From: Candidatus Heimdallarchaeota archaeon
GTDB taxonomy: Archaea > Asgardarchaeota > Heimdallarchaeia > Hodarchaeales > Hodarchaeaceae
Reading direction: 5' to 3'
NCBI GenBank assembly: GCA_020353515.1
Contig: CP070695.1
Span: 4,228,931-4,292,930, forward strand
Length of the DNA: 64,000 nucleotides
Shown in pieces: positions 19,854 to 29,670 of the stretch. Made by a program: the position numbers and the translations under genes. The notes beneath the pieces were generated by a model. The model was not told the DNA's origin and made no database searches. It saw only the letters and a program-made list of their open reading frames with translations. Each line of letters begins with the position of its first letter. Within the stretch, counting starts at the first letter, position 1.

Positions 19854-21140
19854 TTAAAGCATTTTAACCATAGTATTGATAGTTCGGCTGCCGATAAGAA
19901 GTTGAACGTTGCGAGTTCCGCCAACCGCTTCTGCGATCTCAGAGACTCCCTGGATAATTGGCATCTTAGTTTGGTCTGTAACACCTGTACCACCCATTGC
20001 ATGCATACATTCATATGTTAATTCATGGACAAGGTAGGCTGCATATTCTTTCATTTGAGATGCCATTGCAACAAAGGGATTCATAAACGGACTGATACCG
20101 ACGAGATCATCTCGTTTAGCATCATAAGCTTCCGCTAATTTCAACAACGCCATTGTAATTGATATAAGTCGGGAATGATATTTCGAGAGAACAGACATAC
20201 CAACCGCTTGGTGGAGTAGAATCTTTGTAGTTCCAGGTGGAGTACCAAATTGCTTCCTCACAGTTGAATAGAGCGATGCTAAAGCAAAAGCACCCCACAT
20301 TTGGCCCACATTTGTGGCAGCAATACCAATTCTTTCAGGTACAAGTCCCTCGAATAGAATATGATATCCTTCACCAGGTCCACCAGTCATATAATCATCA
20401 GGGATGAAGGCGTCTTCAAAGATTGTCTTCCCAATATGAACCTTGCTTACAGATGGAATCCTTATTCTTTCTGCTTTAAATCCTCGATCCCATTCCTTAT
20501 GAGAAACACCTTGAACCATTGTACCGCGTGGATCTTCTTCGTTAAGGACACCATAGACGGCGCACATATCCGCCTTTGGTGAATTTGTTGTGTAACATTT
20601 GATTCCATCGATAGTGTATCCACCATCAACTTTTTCTGCTTTAACAGTCATATTGACAGCATCAGAACCACGTTTGGGCTCTGTAATTCCAATACAGCCG
20701 ATTTTATTACCATCAAGTAAATCTTGAAGGTCTTTTACGAGAGTTTCTCGGTCATTGTGATGATGTGAAATAGGATTAATACAAAGAGTAGAGGCACCCA
20801 TTGCCATGTTAAATTGAGGATTAAAGATATCCATTGTCCAACAGCGGAGGAGTTCAGCTTTCATGCCTGTTTGGATATCAGAACGATGGGGGTATTCGTT
20901 ACTACGGTTAATTAGACCATGTTTACCTGCCCAGGGAAACCAATCGTAATAATCATCGTTATTATGCCCGTTGATTCTTCCAATTTTCTCTTCTTGCTCA
21001 ATACACAGGCTTTGAATTTCTTCAACATAAGCCTTATCTTCATCAGAGAGCAGCATCATCATATTGTTGTTAAATACTCCAAATTGATTTTCTAACTTCA
21101 TTATATCTAGGATTTCGTCTTCCAGAAGTTGAGTTTTCAT
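19854..21140 (-). CDS. Acyl-CoA dehydrogenase family protein
   Basis: GITEPKRGSDA, GIKCYTTN, PERIGIAA, RKQFG, HAMGGTG, GGTRNVQ. Confidence 0.88.
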   Translation of the reverse strand: MKTQLLEDEILDIMKLENQFGVFNNNMMMLLSDEDKAYVEEIQSLCIEQEEKIGRINGHNNDDYYDWFPWAGKHGLINRSNEYPHRSDIQTGMKAELLRCWTMDIFNPQFNMAMGASTLCINPISHHHNDRETLVKDLQDLLDGNKIGCIGITEPKRGSDAVNMTVKAEKVDGGYTIDGIKCYTTNSPKADMCAVYGVLNEEDPRGTMVQGVSHKEWDRGFKAERIRIPSVSKVHIGKTIFEDAFIPDDYMTGGPGEGYHILFEGLVPERIGIAATNVGQMWGAFALASLYSTVRKQFGTPPGTTKILLHQAVGMSVLSKYHSRLISITMALLKLAEAYDAKRDDLVGISPFMNPFVAMASQMKEYAAYLVHELTYECMHAMGGTGVTDQTKMPIIQGVSEIAEAVGGTRNVQLLIGSRTINTMVKML

Positions 21141-21456
21141 GATTCTTACCCTACTTGTTGTTTTTATTCTACTTGAATAGTCTTGTTCATTCTGAGCTCT
21201 TTTTCCTTTATAAGACTTAAGTCTGACATTTTAAGTACAACTCACACACAGGACACTCACACTACAATCCCGTTATCCGTTTCGGATGTTATAGTCATCA
21301 CTCTTTACAAGATATATTATTCGCGATTGCAAAAGGAGGAAATAGAGGAAGGACTAGAAGTATATCGAGTAAGATGACCATACAGCTTTAAGTAAGGAAT
21401 GAATTGCGATAATATCATATTTCTTGGGAAGTCTATCATCCTTTTATAGGTGAAAT

Positions 21457-21918
21457 GTGATTTTAACTATGAAATTGAAAAAAATGAAAGCAGACAAACA
21501 AACAGAAGCAGAAATAAAAGAAGTATTGGATAAAATGTCCGAAGATTATAAAAAGGGCAATATAGACGAAGTACTAACGTTGTTTGCCCCTGATCCCGAT
21601 GTAGTCTTAATTGGATCGGGTACTGACGAAAAGCGTATTGGGTTGGATGAAATTCGGACTCAAGTTGAACGTGATATAGCACAAACCGAGTCTCGGTCTA
21701 TGGAGCATAGAATTATATCTATTTCATCAGCGGGGTCAATATCTTGGTGTGCAACTGAATCAATCGTTCATGCTACCGTTAGTGGCCAAGAAATAACCTT
21801 TGATGGACGATCGACTGTGGTGCTAGAGAAACGTGGAGACAAATGGCTTATTGTTCAAATGCACTTCTCTACTCCACTTAGTGGTCAAGCTGAAGGCGAA
21901 TCATGGCCGACAAACTAA
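21457..21918 (+). CDS. NTF2/SnoaL-like domain protein
   Basis: FAPDPDVVLIGSG, RSTVVLEKRGDKWLIVQMHFS; true start probably ATG 21469 or 21484. Confidence 0.85.
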   Translation: MILTMKLKKMKADKQTEAEIKEVLDKMSEDYKKGNIDEVLTLFAPDPDVVLIGSGTDEKRIGLDEIRTQVERDIAQTESRSMEHRIISISSAGSISWCATESIVHATVSGQEITFDGRSTVVLEKRGDKWLIVQMHFSTPLSGQAEGESWPTN

Positions 21919-22086
21919 CTCCTTTCTTCTATCTAAGCTGGGTTTTATTACCACCTAAGAAAGATGAGAATGAAAAAGTAGAAATAACATAAAAAGAGAT
22001 AAACTCAAATAAGAGGCCGAGTGAGGAGGATGAACGAAGTCAATGCTTCAGTAGTCCCCAGATAGTGACCTGTCTGAAGGAAACGT

Positions 22087-22251
22087 ATGTCTAAAGAGAG
22101 GAGAAAACAAGTAGAGATTGGTAAGGACATGATTATGTAATTTAACCAACAATAAGACATGTTTTTACTGGGGGAGTTCATTCAAGCCTTGAAGATAAAT
22201 CGAAAGACAGTGATAGATTGGTTAAAGCTATATCCTCCTCCTGTGGAATAA
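22087..22251 (+). pseudogene. Possible decayed small HTH gene
   Basis: One frame reads MSKERRKQVEIGKDMIM*FNQQ*DMFLLGEFIQALKINRKTVIDWLKLY with two in-frame TAA. Confidence 0.3.
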
Positions 22252-22529
22252 AATCCGACTAGGATGAGGATAGGCGTCTGAATCAGAAACCATCCTCAAT
22301 TATGACGAAAATAGTAGTAGTATTAATTTTCAAGAAATGTATTAGGAAAACATGGCAGATTAATTATTGATGAATATATGAACACTTTTTCAGTGATTTC
22401 CTAAAAAATATATTTCCATTTAGACTAGAGTTACCAGTGTCAGAATAATAAATCTTAGATAACTCAAGAAAATGACCCTCTTTTACAAGTAAAAAGAACA
22501 TATACCTTGGAAAAAGGAGTTTGTAATCA

Positions 22530-24311
22530 TTGACCAGCAATTGGGATTTATCATTTTTATACAAAGGATTTGATGATCCAAAGATTGATGAAGACTTGGA
22601 TCAGGCTATTAAGATAGCTGACGAATTGGAAAAATATCACGGAAAATTAAAAGAGGGTAATCTTTCTGCAAAGGAGCTACTTAATCTTTTAGAACAAGTC
22701 GAAAAGGTTGAAACATTAGGTTCAAAGGCAGTTGCATATGGTGCCCTACTTTTTTACCAAGAAACTACTAATGAAGATCATAAGGCCCTTTATGCTAGAA
22801 TGCAACAGCGAGCGGTTGAAATTGATAACAAATTGATATGGATCACATTAGAGTTAAATGACCTTAGAAAAGAGAAGATAGAAGAATATCTCCAAGATCC
22901 GCTATTAGCAAATTATCATCACTATATCACAGTTAAGAGGCTGAAACAACCTTATTTACTCTCAGAGAAAGTAGAACAAGTTCTTTTGCAAAAAGCGCTT
23001 GTAGGTAGGGACGCATGGCTAAAATTCTTTCAGGAATTCACTGCAGCATTTGAATTCGAGGTTGAAATTGAAGGTGAAATCAAAAAACTGGCACCAGGGG
23101 AGATTTATCCTTTATTTCGTGACCCAAATCCAGAAACCCGTGAGCAAGTCTTCAAGACATATTATCAGAGGTATGCAAAAGATTCTATTGCAATATCTCA
23201 CTGTTTCAATAATATTTGGAAGAATCATGGTCAGGATGTTGATCTACGTAATTATCCTACAACAATGACTCCTGCTCATATAAGAAATCAAACAGATGAA
23301 AAAATCGTCGAAACTATGATGGAAATCATCAAGAAGAATTATTCTCTCGTACAAGATTATTATAAAGCCAAGGCTAAATTAATGGGTCAAGGAAATAAAC
23401 TTAAAGGCTCAGATCTCTATGCTCCCTTAGGAAAAGCGATCAAATATACTTGGGAGGAAGCTAAGCAAATGGTACTAGATTCTTATAATGAATTTGATTC
23501 TGAAATTGGTGAAATGGCTAGAGGGTTTTTTGATCGCAATTTAATTGATTCAGAAGTTCGAAAAACCAAGAGATTCGGTGCGTTCTGTATGGGAATAGCT
23601 CCTGGGATAGATCCAGTTCTCCATATGTCATTTGATGGAACCCCAGATGGGGTCAGTACGCTAGCACATGAAATGGGCCATGGTCTCCATGATATGTTTA
23701 GTGGACGAAAACAAACCATGTTAAACTATAATCCACCACTGGTAGCAGCAGAAACAGCATCTGTTTTCGGAGAACAGATCCTTATCGATAAAATGTTAAA
23801 AACTATGACCGACGAAGAAGCGAAATTAAGACTCCTTGCAAGTCAGATAGAGGATGCTATTATTACAATATCCCGTCAAACAATGTACGTTTTCTTTGAA
23901 AATGAATGTCATGAAAAGGGGGCAAAAGAGAACTTATCTACTCAAAAGATGTCTGATATCTGGGATAAACATGTCCAGGACGCATATGGAGATGCTGTAG
24001 AATTTTTACCAGAACAGAGCTGGAATTGGGCAACAATTCCACATTTTCTGGATCCTAGAGTTTTTTATTGTTATGCATATTCATTCGGAATGCTCTTTGT
24101 TCTGGGTCTCTATCAAAAGTACCTGGAAGAGGGAGAATCATTTATCCCCAAATATAAACAAATTCTCGAAGCCGGTGGATCACAGTTTCCTGTTGATTTA
24201 GCAAACTCTGTTGGTTTAGACCTCACATCTCCTGAATTTTGGCAGGCAGGTTTCGACTATCTTGGCAAGTTATTAAAAGAGTTTCAAAAAATTGTTGACA
24301 CACGGGTATAG
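22530..24311 (+). CDS. pepF: Oligoendopeptidase F (M3B)
   Basis: WDLSFLY start, GAFC, TLAHEMGH, AETASVF, IPHF, FYCYAY. Confidence 0.92.
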   Translation: MTSNWDLSFLYKGFDDPKIDEDLDQAIKIADELEKYHGKLKEGNLSAKELLNLLEQVEKVETLGSKAVAYGALLFYQETTNEDHKALYARMQQRAVEIDNKLIWITLELNDLRKEKIEEYLQDPLLANYHHYITVKRLKQPYLLSEKVEQVLLQKALVGRDAWLKFFQEFTAAFEFEVEIEGEIKKLAPGEIYPLFRDPNPETREQVFKTYYQRYAKDSIAISHCFNNIWKNHGQDVDLRNYPTTMTPAHIRNQTDEKIVETMMEIIKKNYSLVQDYYKAKAKLMGQGNKLKGSDLYAPLGKAIKYTWEEAKQMVLDSYNEFDSEIGEMARGFFDRNLIDSEVRKTKRFGAFCMGIAPGIDPVLHMSFDGTPDGVSTLAHEMGHGLHDMFSGRKQTMLNYNPPLVAAETASVFGEQILIDKMLKTMTDEEAKLRLLASQIEDAIITISRQTMYVFFENECHEKGAKENLSTQKMSDIWDKHVQDAYGDAVEFLPEQSWNWATIPHFLDPRVFYCYAYSFGMLFVLGLYQKYLEEGESFIPKYKQILEAGGSQFPVDLANSVGLDLTSPEFWQAGFDYLGKLLKEFQKIVDTRV

Positions 24312-24411
24312 TTCCTTGTTGAAAATGCATTAACCAGTTCAAAACCACTCTAAACAAGAATTTGGTTTATAGCGACAATTTCAATGAAGGACACTCCCGA
24401 ACATTAGTTCT

Positions 24412-25623
24412 ATGGAGATTCAATGTATGAGAGCGATTGTTAATGCGAAAATTCTTTGTCCAAATCTAGGATTCATCGAGAATGGAAGTATAATATTTGA
24501 TGAGGAAAAAATCCATGCCGTTGGAACAAATATAACCATTCCTGAAGGTACTGAAATTATCGATGTCGAAAAAAAATTTGTCTTACCAGGTTTTATTGAC
24601 GCACATACCCATCAAGGCCTTTTCGAGGGCGGAATAGGCTGGGCAGGAAGAGATGGTAATGAAATGACTGATCCAATTACTCCTCACTTAAGAGGTCTGG
24701 ACTCCTTTAATCCTGAAGAGAGATCATTAAAAGAAGTGCTAAAAGGCGGAGTCACTTGTATTAACACAGGGCCGGGTTCTGGAAATGTAATTTCTGGTCA
24801 AGCTTTTGTCATCAAACCCTTTGGAGAGAAGATAGTTGATGAGATGGTTTTATTGGCTCCCTCAGGACTTAAAGTGGCATTAGGAGAGAACCCCAAAAGA
24901 GTTCATGGTCAGGAACAGAAAAGAATGCCTCAAACAAGAATGGGGGTGGCTGGACTTTTAAGGAAAACATTCACAGATGCTAAAAATTACATTAATGAAT
25001 GGGAGACTTATGGTAAAAGATTATCCATGTCTGAATCACAAGGAAAAGCACCTCCCATACCACCAAAACACGATTTAGGAATGGAAGCCGTGGTTAAAGT
25101 AATCAAAAAAGAAATTCCCCTCCATGCTCATGCCCACCGAGCTGATGACATCGCTACCATTATCAGGATTTCTGAAGAGTTCGACATTCGACTTGTTCTT
25201 ATTCACTGCACAGAGGGGGAAAAAATCGCCCAATATATTGCCAAAAAGGGAGTACCCGCTGTGATAGGACCAACAATCTTTTGGGTGAGTAAACCAGAGA
25301 CTCGTGAACGATCTTTTAAAACTGTTGTTAGTTTAGTTAAAGCAGGAGTGAAAGTTGCGTTACAAACAGATTCATTGACTCCGATGGACTTTTTCCAGTT
25401 ATTACCAATGTTTGCATTGAAGGAAGGATTAACGCGAGAGGAAGCATTAAACAGTGTAACTAAAAATCCAGCTGAAATTTTGGGAATCTATGACCGTGTT
25501 GGGTCATTAGATGAAGGAAAAGATGCTGATATTGTGATATGGTCAGACCACCCATTCGAGTTTTATAGCAAGGTCGAAAAAGTCTTTATAAATGGAAAAG
25601 AAGTATATTCTGCTATAAATTGA
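24412..25623 (+). CDS. Amidohydrolase family protein
   Basis: PGFIDAHTH, KVALGENPK, HAHRADD, IHCTEG, GKDADIVIW. Confidence 0.9.
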   Translation: MEIQCMRAIVNAKILCPNLGFIENGSIIFDEEKIHAVGTNITIPEGTEIIDVEKKFVLPGFIDAHTHQGLFEGGIGWAGRDGNEMTDPITPHLRGLDSFNPEERSLKEVLKGGVTCINTGPGSGNVISGQAFVIKPFGEKIVDEMVLLAPSGLKVALGENPKRVHGQEQKRMPQTRMGVAGLLRKTFTDAKNYINEWETYGKRLSMSESQGKAPPIPPKHDLGMEAVVKVIKKEIPLHAHAHRADDIATIIRISEEFDIRLVLIHCTEGEKIAQYIAKKGVPAVIGPTIFWVSKPETRERSFKTVVSLVKAGVKVALQTDSLTPMDFFQLLPMFALKEGLTREEALNSVTKNPAEILGIYDRVGSLDEGKDADIVIWSDHPFEFYSKVEKVFINGKEVYSAIN

Positions 25624-25735
25624 TCGAAAAAAGTCGTCCAAGGTTAAAATCTTGCTATAGAACCAATATAAATCCCCTATAGATATCTTTTTGAGAACCA
25701 TTTTCACCTTTTTATTCGGAGGATTAAGAAATTCT

Positions 25736-28700
25736 ATGACTTCTCATGGAAGTTCTGATTTTGATATAAAATTCTCTGGCCATGTACCAATCTTGTGGAA
25801 ACGTAAGGTCAGAAATTTTATCAAAAAAGATCGACAGCAGGCTTTGGAGATTTTCCTTGAAAATTATAAAGAGGAAAAAGATCCTAAACAGATGCAGTAT
25901 GGTCTCGAACAACTACTTCCAGAAAGTCTTGATTCAGTTCTCTCTTCTTTTAAAGAATTAACTAAAGAAGAAACAGTAACCATTTTCAATCTGCTTTCAA
26001 GTCCGGAATTCCTTACTCATATTTCTTCCTTAAACCAAGAAAAACAGGAATTAATCTTAAATCAAATTTATAAAAATTGGATACCTGATCTAAAACAGGA
26101 ATCAATAGAAGAAATTCTTTCCCAAATTAATCCGACCTTGTCAACCATGTTATATAACAAAATATTGGATACTAAATTTTCTCATATAGTGGAAATTTTA
26201 CAACTATGGGGAACAGAAATTCTCCCAATTATATTGGATTCATATCTAGAAACTCCGATTGATCAGATAGAACAATTATTTAAGGATCTCGAACCTGAAA
26301 AACGGGTGGAAGTATTTCAAAGGGCTAAAGGTTTATCAAAAGAGCATCTACAGAACGTTTTCCCCTTGATGTCTCCAACAGAAGAAGAATTGGGCTTTTT
26401 ATTTACATTGAAATATTTAAGTGACAATAAATCGAGAAATCTCATTATTAATTGGCTCACTAAACATAAATTTCCTCTAGAGCTACTTCTACGGGTATAT
26501 AAACAAAATTCAACAGATGAAACTCTTTCATTCATGGTTACATATTTTGTTTCTAGTATTAAACAAAAAGTTCATCCCCCTGATGAGGTACTTTTATCCA
26601 TATTGAGTGTTTATGAGTTTCCTATCGCTCATGAAATTTTAGAATACTTAAATTCGATTAAAGAATATCAACCCCTAGAAATTCTCGTTTCTTGTCTAAG
26701 TAAGCTTCAGGGAGAGGTTTCCCAGTATTTAGAATTTTTTCAGCCTGAATTTGAGACCTACAGTTCTCAGAATATTGAATTAATATTGCAAACTTATCTT
26801 CTCAGTCCTCATAGATCACATCACCAATTATTATTACCATTTCTTCAAGATGTTGCAGCTAAAAATTGGAAAAAGGTACTTAAAGCTACATCTAAGACCG
26901 AGATCCACCTACCAGCAGCTTTGGTTTTTAACATTTTTCAAAACTGTTCTAAAAGGACAAAAAATAGTATTGGTAACTATCTCATTGAAGAATCTTTGGT
27001 AAAGCATTTTTCATTTCTCTTCAGTGATTATGATATCTTCCAATCAGCTCTAGTATATTCTAAGGAATTACCCACCAGCGTTCAAGTTTTATTGGATCCC
27101 TTTCTCAGACAACATGTATCTGAGAGTTTTAAACACATCATTCGATTAGGAAAAAAAATTACTTTTCCTCAACTTGCTTTTTCGCCAATGATGGATGAAA
27201 CTTCCTTAAAGCTTCTTCTATCTACAATAGGGAAAAATGCGGAATTAATCACTTTTTGGGAAGAGACTTTCCTTTTATGTTCAGAACATGCGTTACAAGT
27301 TGTACTGCAAAAGTATATCGCTAAAGAACGAAGGAAAAAAGATTATCTGGTTCCTCTATTGGAAAAATTGATTGATCTAGAGACACTAAAATTCTGGACA
27401 ACTTTAAAAACAATGGATTTACAAGAAATTTCCAGATTAGAACCAATATTAACTCATACATTTGAGAAAAGTATTCCTATAATTGGAGAAGTCTTACCAC
27501 GATTGCCTAAGAATCACTTAACGTTCATTATTAACAACATCCTCCCTCAATTTTCTTCATCAGGGGCTAAAATTTTATACTCTCTCTTCTCAATAAATGA
27601 TATATCAAATATCGAAGAACAAGTAATTCTCACAGTCCTAAAAACTGTTCAGCTTGACCATAAGGACTTGTTGACTATTTCATTGGTTCGATGTTCAAAA
27701 CTGATCACCAATCCAAAATACAATAGTTTATTTCCAGACTTATTAGATAAACTCTTTACACTTTATCCTACTGAATCATTAGCAATTACAGATATACATA
27801 GATTGAGTACGCTAGTACCTCCAGCAAAATCATTGTTATCATCATTATCTAAAAACGACCTTGAAGAAACCTTATCAGCATTAACGAAAACTCTTGCTTC
27901 AAATGTATTGAAAACTGTTATACACGACGGTTTCTTACATCTATCAAGGGAAGGAGAAGATTTATCACTGTTAGAGAAGCTATTATCAAATTATGAAACA
28001 GAAGAATTCTCTATTGAGGGAACAAATGCTCTTCGAGATTACCTATCTGTTATTGTTGGTAAATCAGGAAGTAGGGATTTATTGATTTTTACTACATTTC
28101 GAAATAAACCTCAAGGTCAAGTTCAATTCTTACCAAGCTTTTTTTCTCGTACATCACATAATACTCTTGAAAAAATCCTTATTGATTCACCTGTTGACCC
28201 ATTGGAAGAGAATATGCTCCGATCAATAACGAATTATTTTGAATCCAATCCTCCAGAAAACCCCGAAGAGTATTTCCTCTCACTTTATAAGAGAATGAAA
28301 GAAAAAGAGGACGTTCAACGAGCTATCTTACCGCTTTTAGGAGAATTCTGTTCTTGGCATAATCTCTCAATCCTAATGGAGCTTCAGGAAAGAGAAAAAT
28401 ACCCAAGAGAGTATCAAAAAGCCCTGATAAAATTCTCTTCAAGGTTTGACATTCAATCACCTCAAGCTCTCCAACAAATTTGGATTTCAGGCCTCAAAGA
28501 AGTATATACTCGTTTAAAAAAGCCTGGACCTCACTTCCAAAGCCAGTGTCCTCAATGTGGGAATCCTATACTTGAAAAACAAAAGAATTGTGGATTCTGT
28601 AGCCAACGACTTACTTGTATAATATGCCGAAAATCAGTTGTTCTATTACAATCTGATGAGGAGGTAGTACAATGTCCTCAATGCGCTAATTTTTTTCATC

Positions 28701-28813
28701 GACGTCATTTACAGGAAAGTGTTAAACTTCAAAAGAAATGTCCTGTTTGTAATGTTACATTACGAGAACGAGAAGTATCATCACTTCCAGCATTCACTTT
28801 CTTCTATAAATAG
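25736..28813 (+). CDS. Long alpha-helical (solenoid-like) protein with C-terminal zinc ribbon plus RING finger
   Basis: ~930 aa of Leu-rich amphipathic helices, then CPQC-x10-CGFC-x5-CIIC-x15-CPQC-x4-HRRH-x10-CPVC; ATG 25736 preceded by GGAGG. Confidence 0.75.
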   Translation: MTSHGSSDFDIKFSGHVPILWKRKVRNFIKKDRQQALEIFLENYKEEKDPKQMQYGLEQLLPESLDSVLSSFKELTKEETVTIFNLLSSPEFLTHISSLNQEKQELILNQIYKNWIPDLKQESIEEILSQINPTLSTMLYNKILDTKFSHIVEILQLWGTEILPIILDSYLETPIDQIEQLFKDLEPEKRVEVFQRAKGLSKEHLQNVFPLMSPTEEELGFLFTLKYLSDNKSRNLIINWLTKHKFPLELLLRVYKQNSTDETLSFMVTYFVSSIKQKVHPPDEVLLSILSVYEFPIAHEILEYLNSIKEYQPLEILVSCLSKLQGEVSQYLEFFQPEFETYSSQNIELILQTYLLSPHRSHHQLLLPFLQDVAAKNWKKVLKATSKTEIHLPAALVFNIFQNCSKRTKNSIGNYLIEESLVKHFSFLFSDYDIFQSALVYSKELPTSVQVLLDPFLRQHVSESFKHIIRLGKKITFPQLAFSPMMDETSLKLLLSTIGKNAELITFWEETFLLCSEHALQVVLQKYIAKERRKKDYLVPLLEKLIDLETLKFWTTLKTMDLQEISRLEPILTHTFEKSIPIIGEVLPRLPKNHLTFIINNILPQFSSSGAKILYSLFSINDISNIEEQVILTVLKTVQLDHKDLLTISLVRCSKLITNPKYNSLFPDLLDKLFTLYPTESLAITDIHRLSTLVPPAKSLLSSLSKNDLEETLSALTKTLASNVLKTVIHDGFLHLSREGEDLSLLEKLLSNYETEEFSIEGTNALRDYLSVIVGKSGSRDLLIFTTFRNKPQGQVQFLPSFFSRTSHNTLEKILIDSPVDPLEENMLRSITNYFESNPPENPEEYFLSLYKRMKEKEDVQRAILPLLGEFCSWHNLSILMELQEREKYPREYQKALIKFSSRFDIQSPQALQQIWISGLKEVYTRLKKPGPHFQSQCPQCGNPILEKQKNCGFCSQRLTCIICRKSVVLLQSDEEVVQCPQCANFFHRRHLQESVKLQKKCPVCNVTLREREVSSLPAFTFFYK

Positions 28814-28869
28814 CGATTTGATACTTCCACCATTTAAGAGGGAAATTAACTGGAATAGGAGAGAATTCC

Positions 28870-29670
28870 TCAATCCAAGGGAACATCAGGAAAGGCAACA
28901 ATCCGACACATTGATGATTCCAACTCGATTCCCCGAAGAGGGAAACACCCAATCCATGTCCGTTTATTCTTTAACAGAGGATCATCTGGAATCCATAGAT
29001 TCTCAGCATGGATCACTCCTTTCGGAAATAAATCAATATGCATTATTTGATAAAACTTATCAGGCGGAAACATCTCATCCCAGGATTTCACTTTATATTG
29101 TTCTTTTAATTTCTCCTCTGCCTCAGCAAATAACTTTGGATGCCAATCACGAATGATAGTATTCATTGGATGATCAGCGCTACCACAGTCAACGCCTATC
29201 CATTTGAATTCCATATCAATAGCCCATTGGGGAAAATCTTTGTCTGGTCCTGGATGTTTAACAAAATATCTTACCTCATCACTCTCAGGTTGATCCCAGG
29301 CATATCTTTGATATCCAGTCTTTATTAAGAGAATATCTCCTTTTCTGATATCAGCTTGTTCCATCAACATGTCAGGAGAATACAGATCGTAATCAGTTAG
29401 TAAATCCGAGAGATCTACAACCACTCCAGGTCCGCAAAACTCATCCAACTCCATTTCTCCAATAGTTCTCCCAGCTGCAAAAAAGTGAATTTCTCCATCA
29501 ATGTGGGTTCCCACATGATTGCTGGTGGTCAGTATCTGTCCATTGGCTCCTTGACCCATATGGGCTCCTGCAATTCGTTTGAAATATTGTAACTGTAGAG
29601 GAACATAACTCGGCCAAGGAGGTGTATGTATTGAAAGTCGTTGTGTCATATCTATCATTCTAAAATTCAT
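28870..29670 (-). CDS. Cyclase family protein (kynurenine formamidase-like)
   Basis: HVGTHIDG (HxGTHxD), GDILLIKTG, GVD, HAENL. Confidence 0.85.
   Translation of the reverse strand: MNFRMIDMTQRLSIHTPPWPSYVPLQLQYFKRIAGAHMGQGANGQILTTSNHVGTHIDGEIHFFAAGRTIGEMELDEFCGPGVVVDLSDLLTDYDLYSPDMLMEQADIRKGDILLIKTGYQRYAWDQPESDEVRYFVKHPGPDKDFPQWAIDMEFKWIGVDCGSADHPMNTIIRDWHPKLFAEAEEKLKEQYKVKSWDEMFPPDKFYQIMHIDLFPKGVIHAENLWIPDDPLLKNKRTWIGCFPLRGIELESSMCRIVAFPDVPLD

Follow-up and report, generated by a model that had tools for sequence, protein, structure and literature searches.

The subunits of several eukaryotic complexes (COPI, HOPS/CORVET, SEA/GATOR2 and IFT-A) share beta-propellers, alpha-solenoids and RING-type tails (PMC4678705; 10.1101/2022.08.09.503213), and in IFT-A and GATOR2 these tails serve mainly protein-protein contacts, not catalysis (Hesketh et al. 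2022, 10.1101/2022.08.09.503213). A 2026 preprint described alpha-solenoid clusters that unite Asgard and eukaryotic proteins, among them HOPS/CORVET-like proteins and ubiquitin ligases (E3s) of the RING type, with a caution about convergence (10.64898/2026.10.28.762692); our literature search found no paper linking Asgard with GATOR2 or WDR24. We examined a gene within a 64,000-nucleotide stretch of a Candidatus Heimdallarchaeota archaeon genome (contig CP070695.1, positions 4,228,931 to 4,292,930; the window). An initial reading of the letters (the original prediction) had pointed to an open reading frame (ORF) for helical repeats ending in a zinc finger and a RING, and had likened its product to the C-terminal half of GATOR2/SEACAT and HOPS/CORVET subunits, either as a propeller-less protocoatomer-like scaffold or as an E3. 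The gene is called here the solenoid-RING gene. We predict, at a probability of roughly 0.5, that its product is a large RING-type ligase for ubiquitin (or a ubiquitin-like modifier) whose solenoid serves as an adaptable platform; the E3 half of the original prediction is thus kept as the favoured reading, and the protocoatomer half is not, given an orphan solenoid and the failure of tail hidden Markov models (HMMs) to match.

The tail of the protein carries the pattern CxxC-x10-CxxC-x5-CxxC-x15-CxxC-x4-HxxH-x10-CPxC, from C938 (base 28547) to C1005 (base 28750), exactly as had been read from the sequence. All 12 ligands were invariant in the orthologues covering the tail (29/29) and in 96 ribbon plus RING cassettes of other proteins; the x15 loop was peculiar to the solenoid-RING family, the other cassettes being shorter there by three residues. 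The cassette was modelled separately with AlphaFold (predicted local distance difference test, pLDDT, 85.3), and the RING part of this model superimposed upon the Prp19 U-box (Z 7.4, root mean square deviation, rmsd, 1.4 A, 53 residues) and upon RNF4 (Z 6.9, rmsd 1.8 A, 58 residues). These superpositions bore out the RING that had been proposed for the C-terminus: as modelled, a zinc ribbon leads into a true RING/U-box fold, central helix included. Pfam scores of the protein were sub-threshold both for zf-RING_2 (24.0 bits, cut-off 27.3) and for Prok-RING_1 (23.5 bits, cut-off 29.1). In a single-sequence search the RING part aligned to the RING-H2 ligases RNF165 and Arkadia at E ~0.004; when a profile of the 96 cassettes was searched against the PDB, the RING part alone matched RNF4 (1.4e-9), Arkadia (1.3e-7) and Arkadia/RNF165 (~1e-7), and also RNF24, RNF38 and RNF126. 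By these alignments the closest relatives of the RING part appear to be catalytically active RING-H2 ligases, which counts for a ligase. A self-comparison with hhalign matched the ribbon (residues 937-960, 28547-28618) to the latter half of the RING (residues 979-1010, 28670-28765) at 60% probability; the two may simply have the chemistry of CPxC knuckles in common, or may stem from an ancient duplication within the protein.

The source genome holds two ubiquitin-like genes, four UQ_con genes for ubiquitin-conjugating enzymes (E2s) that pass the cut-off, one further weak match, and some eight RING ORFs, among which the solenoid-RING gene is the sole ORF with a complete ribbon plus RING cassette. 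Four RING positions classically engage the E2-ubiquitin conjugate (E2~Ub): Ile/Val after the first Cys, a helix Trp, Pro after ligand 7 and Arg/Lys after ligand 8. The cassette consensus retains all four (of 92 other cassettes, 89 have Ile/Val, 48 have Trp, 90 have Pro and 53 have Lys/Arg). Within the solenoid-RING family, I963 is Ile in 28 and Val in 1 of 29 sequences, and P1003, after the seventh ligand, is invariant. Mean identity to orthologues was 75% for the cassette, 68% for the last solenoid repeats and 37-56% for the rest of the solenoid, a gradient that, together with the faster divergence of the protein relative to its neighbouring enzymes (below), is in keeping with a catalytic handle under constraint and a binding platform free to adapt. 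The occurrence of the cassette at the C-terminus of many scaffolds is as would be expected of an effector module. The RING fold, the E2-contact residues, the ubiquitin genes and the conservation gradient therefore favour a large RING E3. Two clusters of ubiquitin-like, UQ_con E2 and small RING ORFs were seen in the source genome outside the window, at ~3,971,600-3,982,500 and 3,882,600-3,887,400; these are candidate cognate E2/ubiquitin sets for the solenoid-RING protein.

Several observations weigh against a ligase. Within the family the helix Trp is replaced by a near-invariant Ser (S995, 28/29), and the Lys/Arg after the last Cys by Asn or His (N1006). The gene lies far from the ubiquitin/E2 clusters of the genome, its conserved synteny with PepF and amidohydrolase genes offers no functional clue, and the closest whole-cassette look-alikes, the IFT-A/GATOR2 tails, make mainly non-catalytic contacts (10.1101/2022.08.09.503213). 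The Ser at position 995 is not disqualifying, because RNF4, an active ligase, likewise aligns a Ser at the Trp position. The gene product is predicted to be a soluble, single-copy, lineage-specific scaffold: a solenoid of ~900 residues, a short flexible linker, a three-zinc cassette and an aromatic tail. Were it a ligase, binding of substrates or partners would fall to the fast-evolving solenoid and recruitment of an E2~Ub conjugate of the source genome to the highly conserved RING, and the ribbon and tail could aid E2~Ub or partner binding, or RING dimerisation. The aromatic tail might support dimerisation as in dimeric RINGs.

Over its whole length the cassette profile matched WDR19/IFT144 (9.7e-8), Tetrahymena and Leishmania IFT-A (1.1e-5 and 4.5e-5), MIOS (1.9e-5), and WDR24 and WDR59 (2e-4); IFT-A tails, which the original prediction had not named, thus matched the whole tail more strongly than those of GATOR2/SEAC. 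The alignment with WDR19 showed identical CxxC-x10-CxxC-x5-C spacing with the CPxC pairs retained and the first RING site degenerate. Fortuitous zinc-ribbon matches in searches of this kind were the subject of a warning by Kaur and Subramanian 2015 (PMC4678705). As a noise control, a truncated cassette profile was searched; it picked up C2H2 arrays, MDM4 and PHD fingers, none of them related, at E values from 5e-5 to 1e-3. Matches at ~1e-5 thus lie close to the noise expected of profiles rich in Cys and, judged by profile score, the WDR19 match alone is clearly above it. The Foldseek search with the cassette model ranked GATOR2 chain 7uhy_B first (E 6.3e-4, 87 columns, template modelling (TM) score 0.50, rmsd 6.5 A), followed by IFT-A at ranks 2-3, IFT122B at 5, WDR24 at 8 and SEAC at 10, whereas plain RING and U-box matches spanned just 50-60 columns. 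A structural alignment of the cassette with WDR24 gave Z 5.8 (rmsd 5.1 A, 74 residues), and its language-model neighbours included IFT122, IFT121, WDR19 and zinc_ribbon_16 clusters, at scores below the trust level of the tool.

Reciprocal Pfam tests failed. The GATOR2 tail family zinc_ribbon_16 (PF17034) matched neither the protein nor its genomic locus, nor any of 21 genomes of the same GTDB family; across 400 Asgard genomes it matched in 10, one reaching the cut-off solely by summed neighbouring segments and the others falling below. Zf_IFT144_1st (PF23146) matched in 0/21 family genomes and nowhere above cut-off across the Asgard genomes searched. A profile of the solenoid-RING family alone found its best IFT-A chain at just E 0.64. 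At E <0.01, 92 of the 96 cassettes matched zf-RING_2 and 83 matched Prok-RING_1; zinc_ribbon_16 was matched by 19. The original prediction had staked itself on a solenoid and on a RING closer to those of WDR24, Mios and Vps proteins than to generic prokaryotic RINGs: the helical region is a solenoid (below), and by Pfam the RING stands nearer to zf-RING_2/Prok-RING_1 than to zinc_ribbon_16. GATOR2/SEAC C-terminal domains were among the best matches of the whole tail, at scores near the noise of Cys-rich profiles; the likeness did not extend to the solenoid, which is unrelated, nor to zinc_ribbon_16. No HOPS/CORVET chain (Vps11/18/41 RINGs) was recovered among the sequence or fold matches listed, although absence from such lists does not amount to exclusion. 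A word-indexed search of the cassette profile for longer proteins returned Asgard proteins only and no eukaryotic ones; this search relies on shared 5-mers, and its lack of eukaryotic matches is therefore weak evidence. The link to the eukaryotic proteins lies in the tail and is statistically marginal. That the cassette as a unit is homologous to the IFT-A/GATOR2 tails is plausible, at somewhat short of even odds.

These whole-cassette matches also bear on the main rival explanation, less probable than a ligase, in which the protein would serve assembly without catalysis, the ribbon plus RING tail being an oligomerisation or docking module like the tails of GATOR2, IFT-A and HOPS, and the solenoid an arm of a larger Hodarchaeales-specific complex. 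The tails matched best by the whole cassette (IFT144, IFT122, MIOS, WDR24, WDR59, SEAC) mediate subunit contacts (10.1101/2022.08.09.503213; PMC4678705), the consensus Trp and the Lys/Arg linchpin are lost in the family, and dimeric RING/U-box domains (the Prp19 U-box dimer, RNF4) are among the top fold matches; the ribbon loop and C-terminal tail are nearly invariant, suggesting a fixed partner. Yet the eight RING ligands, I963 and P1003 are kept, unlike in the degenerate IFT-A RINGs, the conserved neighbourhood shows no obvious partner gene, and the similarity to the eukaryotic tails is marginal and fails in the reciprocal Pfam tests.

The full-length AlphaFold2 model, built from a 31-sequence alignment, had a mean pLDDT of 84.5 (mostly 75-96 by block), with some 57 short helices over residues 19-925. 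A confident model of this kind makes the region a helical solenoid by structure, and so the helical repeats of the original prediction were upheld by the modelled helices together with the fold comparison. Repeats were not found at the sequence level by hhalign self-comparison, and Pfam gave a HEAT_2 match in 1 of 19 orthologues, at E 0.031. Foldseek of the whole model against the PDB returned the HEAT solenoids RanBP5, CRM1, CAND1, HEATR1, mTOR and SF3B1 (E ~5e-6, TM <=0.21), with a probability of 1.0 to karyopherins, CAND1 and SF3B1. VIA-align re-alignment gave CAND2 (Z 9.8), neurofibromin (9.7), SF3B1 (8.7) and AP2 beta (8.1), and without Foldseek pre-selection gave TOG (Z 8.2), VHS, MIF4G, TSC2 and Integrator pieces, all at Z <=8.2; values of this size count as helical-repeat background in the notes of the tool. 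Solenoids of GATOR2, HOPS/CORVET, IFT-A and listerin were absent from the top-50 fold matches of the whole model (Foldseek, VIA-align). A Wdr19 cluster stood in the top row of an ESM-Atlas shape search, yet at a TM of just 0.20/0.26. No family was assigned to the solenoid by Pfam on 19 orthologues, NCBIfam, PADLOC or the ESM-Atlas feature search, and the whole protein and the family profile, searched against PDB sequences, gave RING-H2 matches for the tail alone and none for the solenoid. The AlphaFold and Foldseek comparison that the original prediction had proposed therefore yielded a solenoid, and GATOR2/IFT-A ranks for the tail, but only generic HEAT/ARM matches for the solenoid. As modelled, the solenoid is a real HEAT/ARM-type alpha-solenoid, and an orphan without a specific tie to protocoatomer solenoids. 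The model was all-helical through residue 925, with no beta-propeller, and when 1.84 billion representatives were searched exhaustively with HMMER, neither a longer relative nor one fused to a propeller turned up.

With karyopherins and CAND1/2 as the top whole-model fold matches, the protein could be a HEAT adaptor of the karyopherin/CAND1 type, with a zinc tail directed at nucleic acid, lipid or a ubiquitin-like modifier and not at an E2; sub-threshold Pfam matches to PHD and zinc-ribbon families, and the PHD and C2H2 fingers matched by the truncated cassette profile, point the same way. We regard this as quite unlikely, as the whole-model matches are at helical-repeat background (TM <=0.2, Z <=10) and the tail, in its central helix and in how it superimposes, resembles RING/U-box domains and not PHD fingers.

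The closest proteins (1,023-1,058 residues; 30-72% identical over full length) are annotated as hypothetical or 'RING finger' and come from Hodarchaeales, Heimdall-group and Promethearchaeota metagenome-assembled genomes; judged by these orthologues, the solenoid-RING gene is a real gene. A search for the helical part (residues 1-930) covered 400 Asgard genomes, the source genome among them: the family was present in single copy in 20 of 21 further members of the same GTDB family and in 0/378 Asgard genomes outside it. Beyond the family, matches among the 1.84 billion representatives were confined to the last ~80 residues. About 140 other proteins of 64-1,250 residues share the ribbon plus RING cassette alone, nearly always at the C-terminus; the named carriers are Thor-, Hod-, Heimdall- and Odinarchaeota, and their N-terminal parts include HEAT, TPR, PCI-wHTH, LVIVD propeller, PPC and DUF2341. 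A shared domain just upstream of the cassette was sought in these other proteins and none was found. The caveat attached to the original prediction, that such RINGs are frequent in Asgard genomes, was correct: the cassette is a common Asgard module on many unrelated architectures. Since the cassette is promiscuous, the fusion of solenoid and cassette is probably a local invention.

Other cassette proteins were noted in passing. The cassette also ends P0076, P0097, P0172, P0223, P0227, P0093, P0150 and P0104, whose N-terminal parts are LVIVD beta-propeller, HEAT, TPR, PPC, DUF2341 or pilin-like. Propeller and solenoid were each found paired with the cassette; all three occurred together in none of ~230 retrieved proteins. 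A separate Heimdall-group family of ~690 residues combines a PCI domain, winged-helix domains and the same cassette (P0175, P0178, P0179, P0181, P0183 and others), and some of its members are annotated 'E3 ubiquitin protein ligase'.

Descent of both solenoid and tail from the ancestor of the GATOR2/SEACAT, HOPS/CORVET and IFT-A proteins, with loss or lack of the propeller, is very unlikely: the solenoid-ZnF-RING order is that of the C-terminal halves of those proteins (PMC4678705; 10.1101/2022.08.09.503213), WDR19 is matched at 9.7e-8 with the same zinc-ribbon spacing, cassette Foldseek ranks 1-3 are GATOR2 and IFT-A chains and a Wdr19 cluster heads the ESM-Atlas rows (at the low TM given above), but the HEAT proteins matched by the solenoid are generic and score at background Z, no Asgard genome outside a single GTDB family has the protein among those searched, the cassette is promiscuous with a fusion that is probably local, and the eukaryotic tail HMMs miss the family.

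The coordinates of the gene and its parts are collected in the table. A mechanical ORF call would begin at TTG 25691; this longer start was rejected for ATG 25736, which is favoured by the GGAGGA site and by the orthologue alignment. The Met at ATG 25736 is the first column in an alignment of 19 full-length orthologues, and with GGAGGA upstream the gene is therefore 25736-28813, 1,025 residues long; the coordinates, length, strand and start proposed at the outset all hold.

Features of the solenoid-RING gene and its product (window coordinates)
Feature	Position	Strand	Basis
Complete coding sequence (P0002), 1,025 residues + stop	25736..28813	+	Full-length orthologues of 1,023-1,058 residues
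Shine-Dalgarno-like GGAGGA, 12 nt 5' of ATG	25718..25723	+	Sequence reading
Predicted alpha-solenoid, residues 19-925, ~57 helices of 8-15 residues, HEAT/ARM-like, no Pfam family	25790..28510	+	AlphaFold2 + fold comparison
Last solenoid repeats, residues 861-929, best conserved part of scaffold	28316..28522	+	68% mean identity to orthologues; many invariant residues
Low-confidence linker, residues 926-937, between solenoid and zinc cassette	28511..28546	+	pLDDT <50 at residues 928-935, full-length model
C4 zinc ribbon C938/C941/C952/C955 (CxxC-x10-CxxC), near-invariant loop	28547..28600	+	Sub-threshold Pfam zinc-ribbon and DZR matches; IFT144/WDR19 tail spacing in HMMER alignment
RING finger, C4H2C2 variant: C961, C964, C980, C983, H988, H991, C1002, C1005	28616..28750	+	Invariant ligands, superposition, profile matches
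Conserved 20-residue C-terminal tail, aromatic end (V1014, L1017, P1018, F/Y1020, F1022, F/Y1024)	28751..28810	+	Column counts; 20 residues long in almost all orthologues

The genes at 19854-29670 are, in order, acyl-CoA dehydrogenase, (SnoaL), M3 oligopeptidase PepF, amidohydrolase, the solenoid-RING gene and a convergent cyclase, an order largely kept in relatives (loci L011-L014). The order of acyl-CoA dehydrogenase, PepF, amidohydrolase, solenoid-RING gene and cyclase is kept in close relatives only and therefore says little about function. The neighbouring enzymes were 70-92% identical in genomes where the solenoid-RING protein was just 32-56% identical. A AATATAAAT stretch at 25665-25673, ~65 nt 5' of the ATG, is a candidate archaeal TATA box; it would give the solenoid-RING gene its own promoter inside the 112-bp gap 3' of the amidohydrolase gene. 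A 145-residue GTG ORF at 28719-29156 (+) shares bases with the convergent cyclase gene and with the 3' end of the RING gene, and is unlikely to be a gene.

The locus is most safely regarded as encoding a candidate large E3 in the ubiquitin system of Hodarchaeales, with a scaffold that is a lineage-specific orphan. If the cassette were truly homologous to the IFT-A/GATOR2 tails, a module that keeps several eukaryotic coat-like complexes together would have a prokaryotic origin to start from, and an archaeal protein amenable to study would be at hand to learn whether such tails were first ubiquitin ligases or first parts for assembly. A stronger proposal is that the Asgard cassette was the direct evolutionary source of the ZnF plus RING tails of IFT-A and GATOR2/SEACAT, and perhaps of HOPS/CORVET and alpha-COP, with proteins joining solenoid and cassette representing a pre-eukaryotic state in which the tail already sat on helical scaffolds for RING-mediated assembly and ubiquitylation; we consider this doubtful.

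Among described families, Prok-RING_1 (PF14446) and zf-RING_2 (PF13639) match most cassettes, and neither model covers the preceding ribbon. The other Asgard ribbon plus RING proteins, which have no Pfam family of their own and carry the annotation 'RING finger protein' or 'E3 ubiquitin protein ligase', end in the same 12-ligand cassette at 30-43% identity; they differ from the solenoid-RING family in its 3-residue longer first RING loop, its Ser for Trp and its Asn/His for Lys/Arg, and their N-terminal parts are unrelated, with nothing shared upstream of the cassette. The catalytic RING-H2 E3s (RNF4, Arkadia/RNF111, RNF165, RNF24, RNF38) are the best matches of the RING part (profile 1.4e-9 to 1e-5) and share with it the fold and the Ile and Pro; the solenoid-RING protein is C4H2C2 (CxxC as ligands 3-4, HxxH as ligands 5-6) and not C3H2C3, carries a ribbon before the RING, and has no Arg linchpin. 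Listerin/Ltn1 also has a long HEAT-like solenoid ending in a RING, and its RING was matched by the cassette profile at 8.3e-5; the N-terminal domain and RWD of listerin had no Pfam match at E <=1 in the solenoid-RING protein.

The GATOR2/SEACAT subunits MIOS, WDR24 and WDR59, or Sea2-4 (PDB 7UHY, 9DX0, 8ADL), have a tandem of ZnF and RING after an alpha-solenoid, as here; by comparison, the solenoid-RING protein is without a propeller, its solenoid is much longer and unrelated, and nothing ties its gene to nutrient sensing. The IFT-A proteins have two propellers plus TPRs where the solenoid-RING protein has no propeller, and their RINGs are degenerate, WDR19 being without the second Cys and the HxxH pair, all of which are retained here. 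In IFT144/WDR19, IFT122 and IFT121 (PDB 8FGW, 8BBF/8BBG, 8F5O, 9A2D), as in the solenoid-RING protein, a zinc ribbon is followed directly by a RING-like finger that ends a region of helical repeats.

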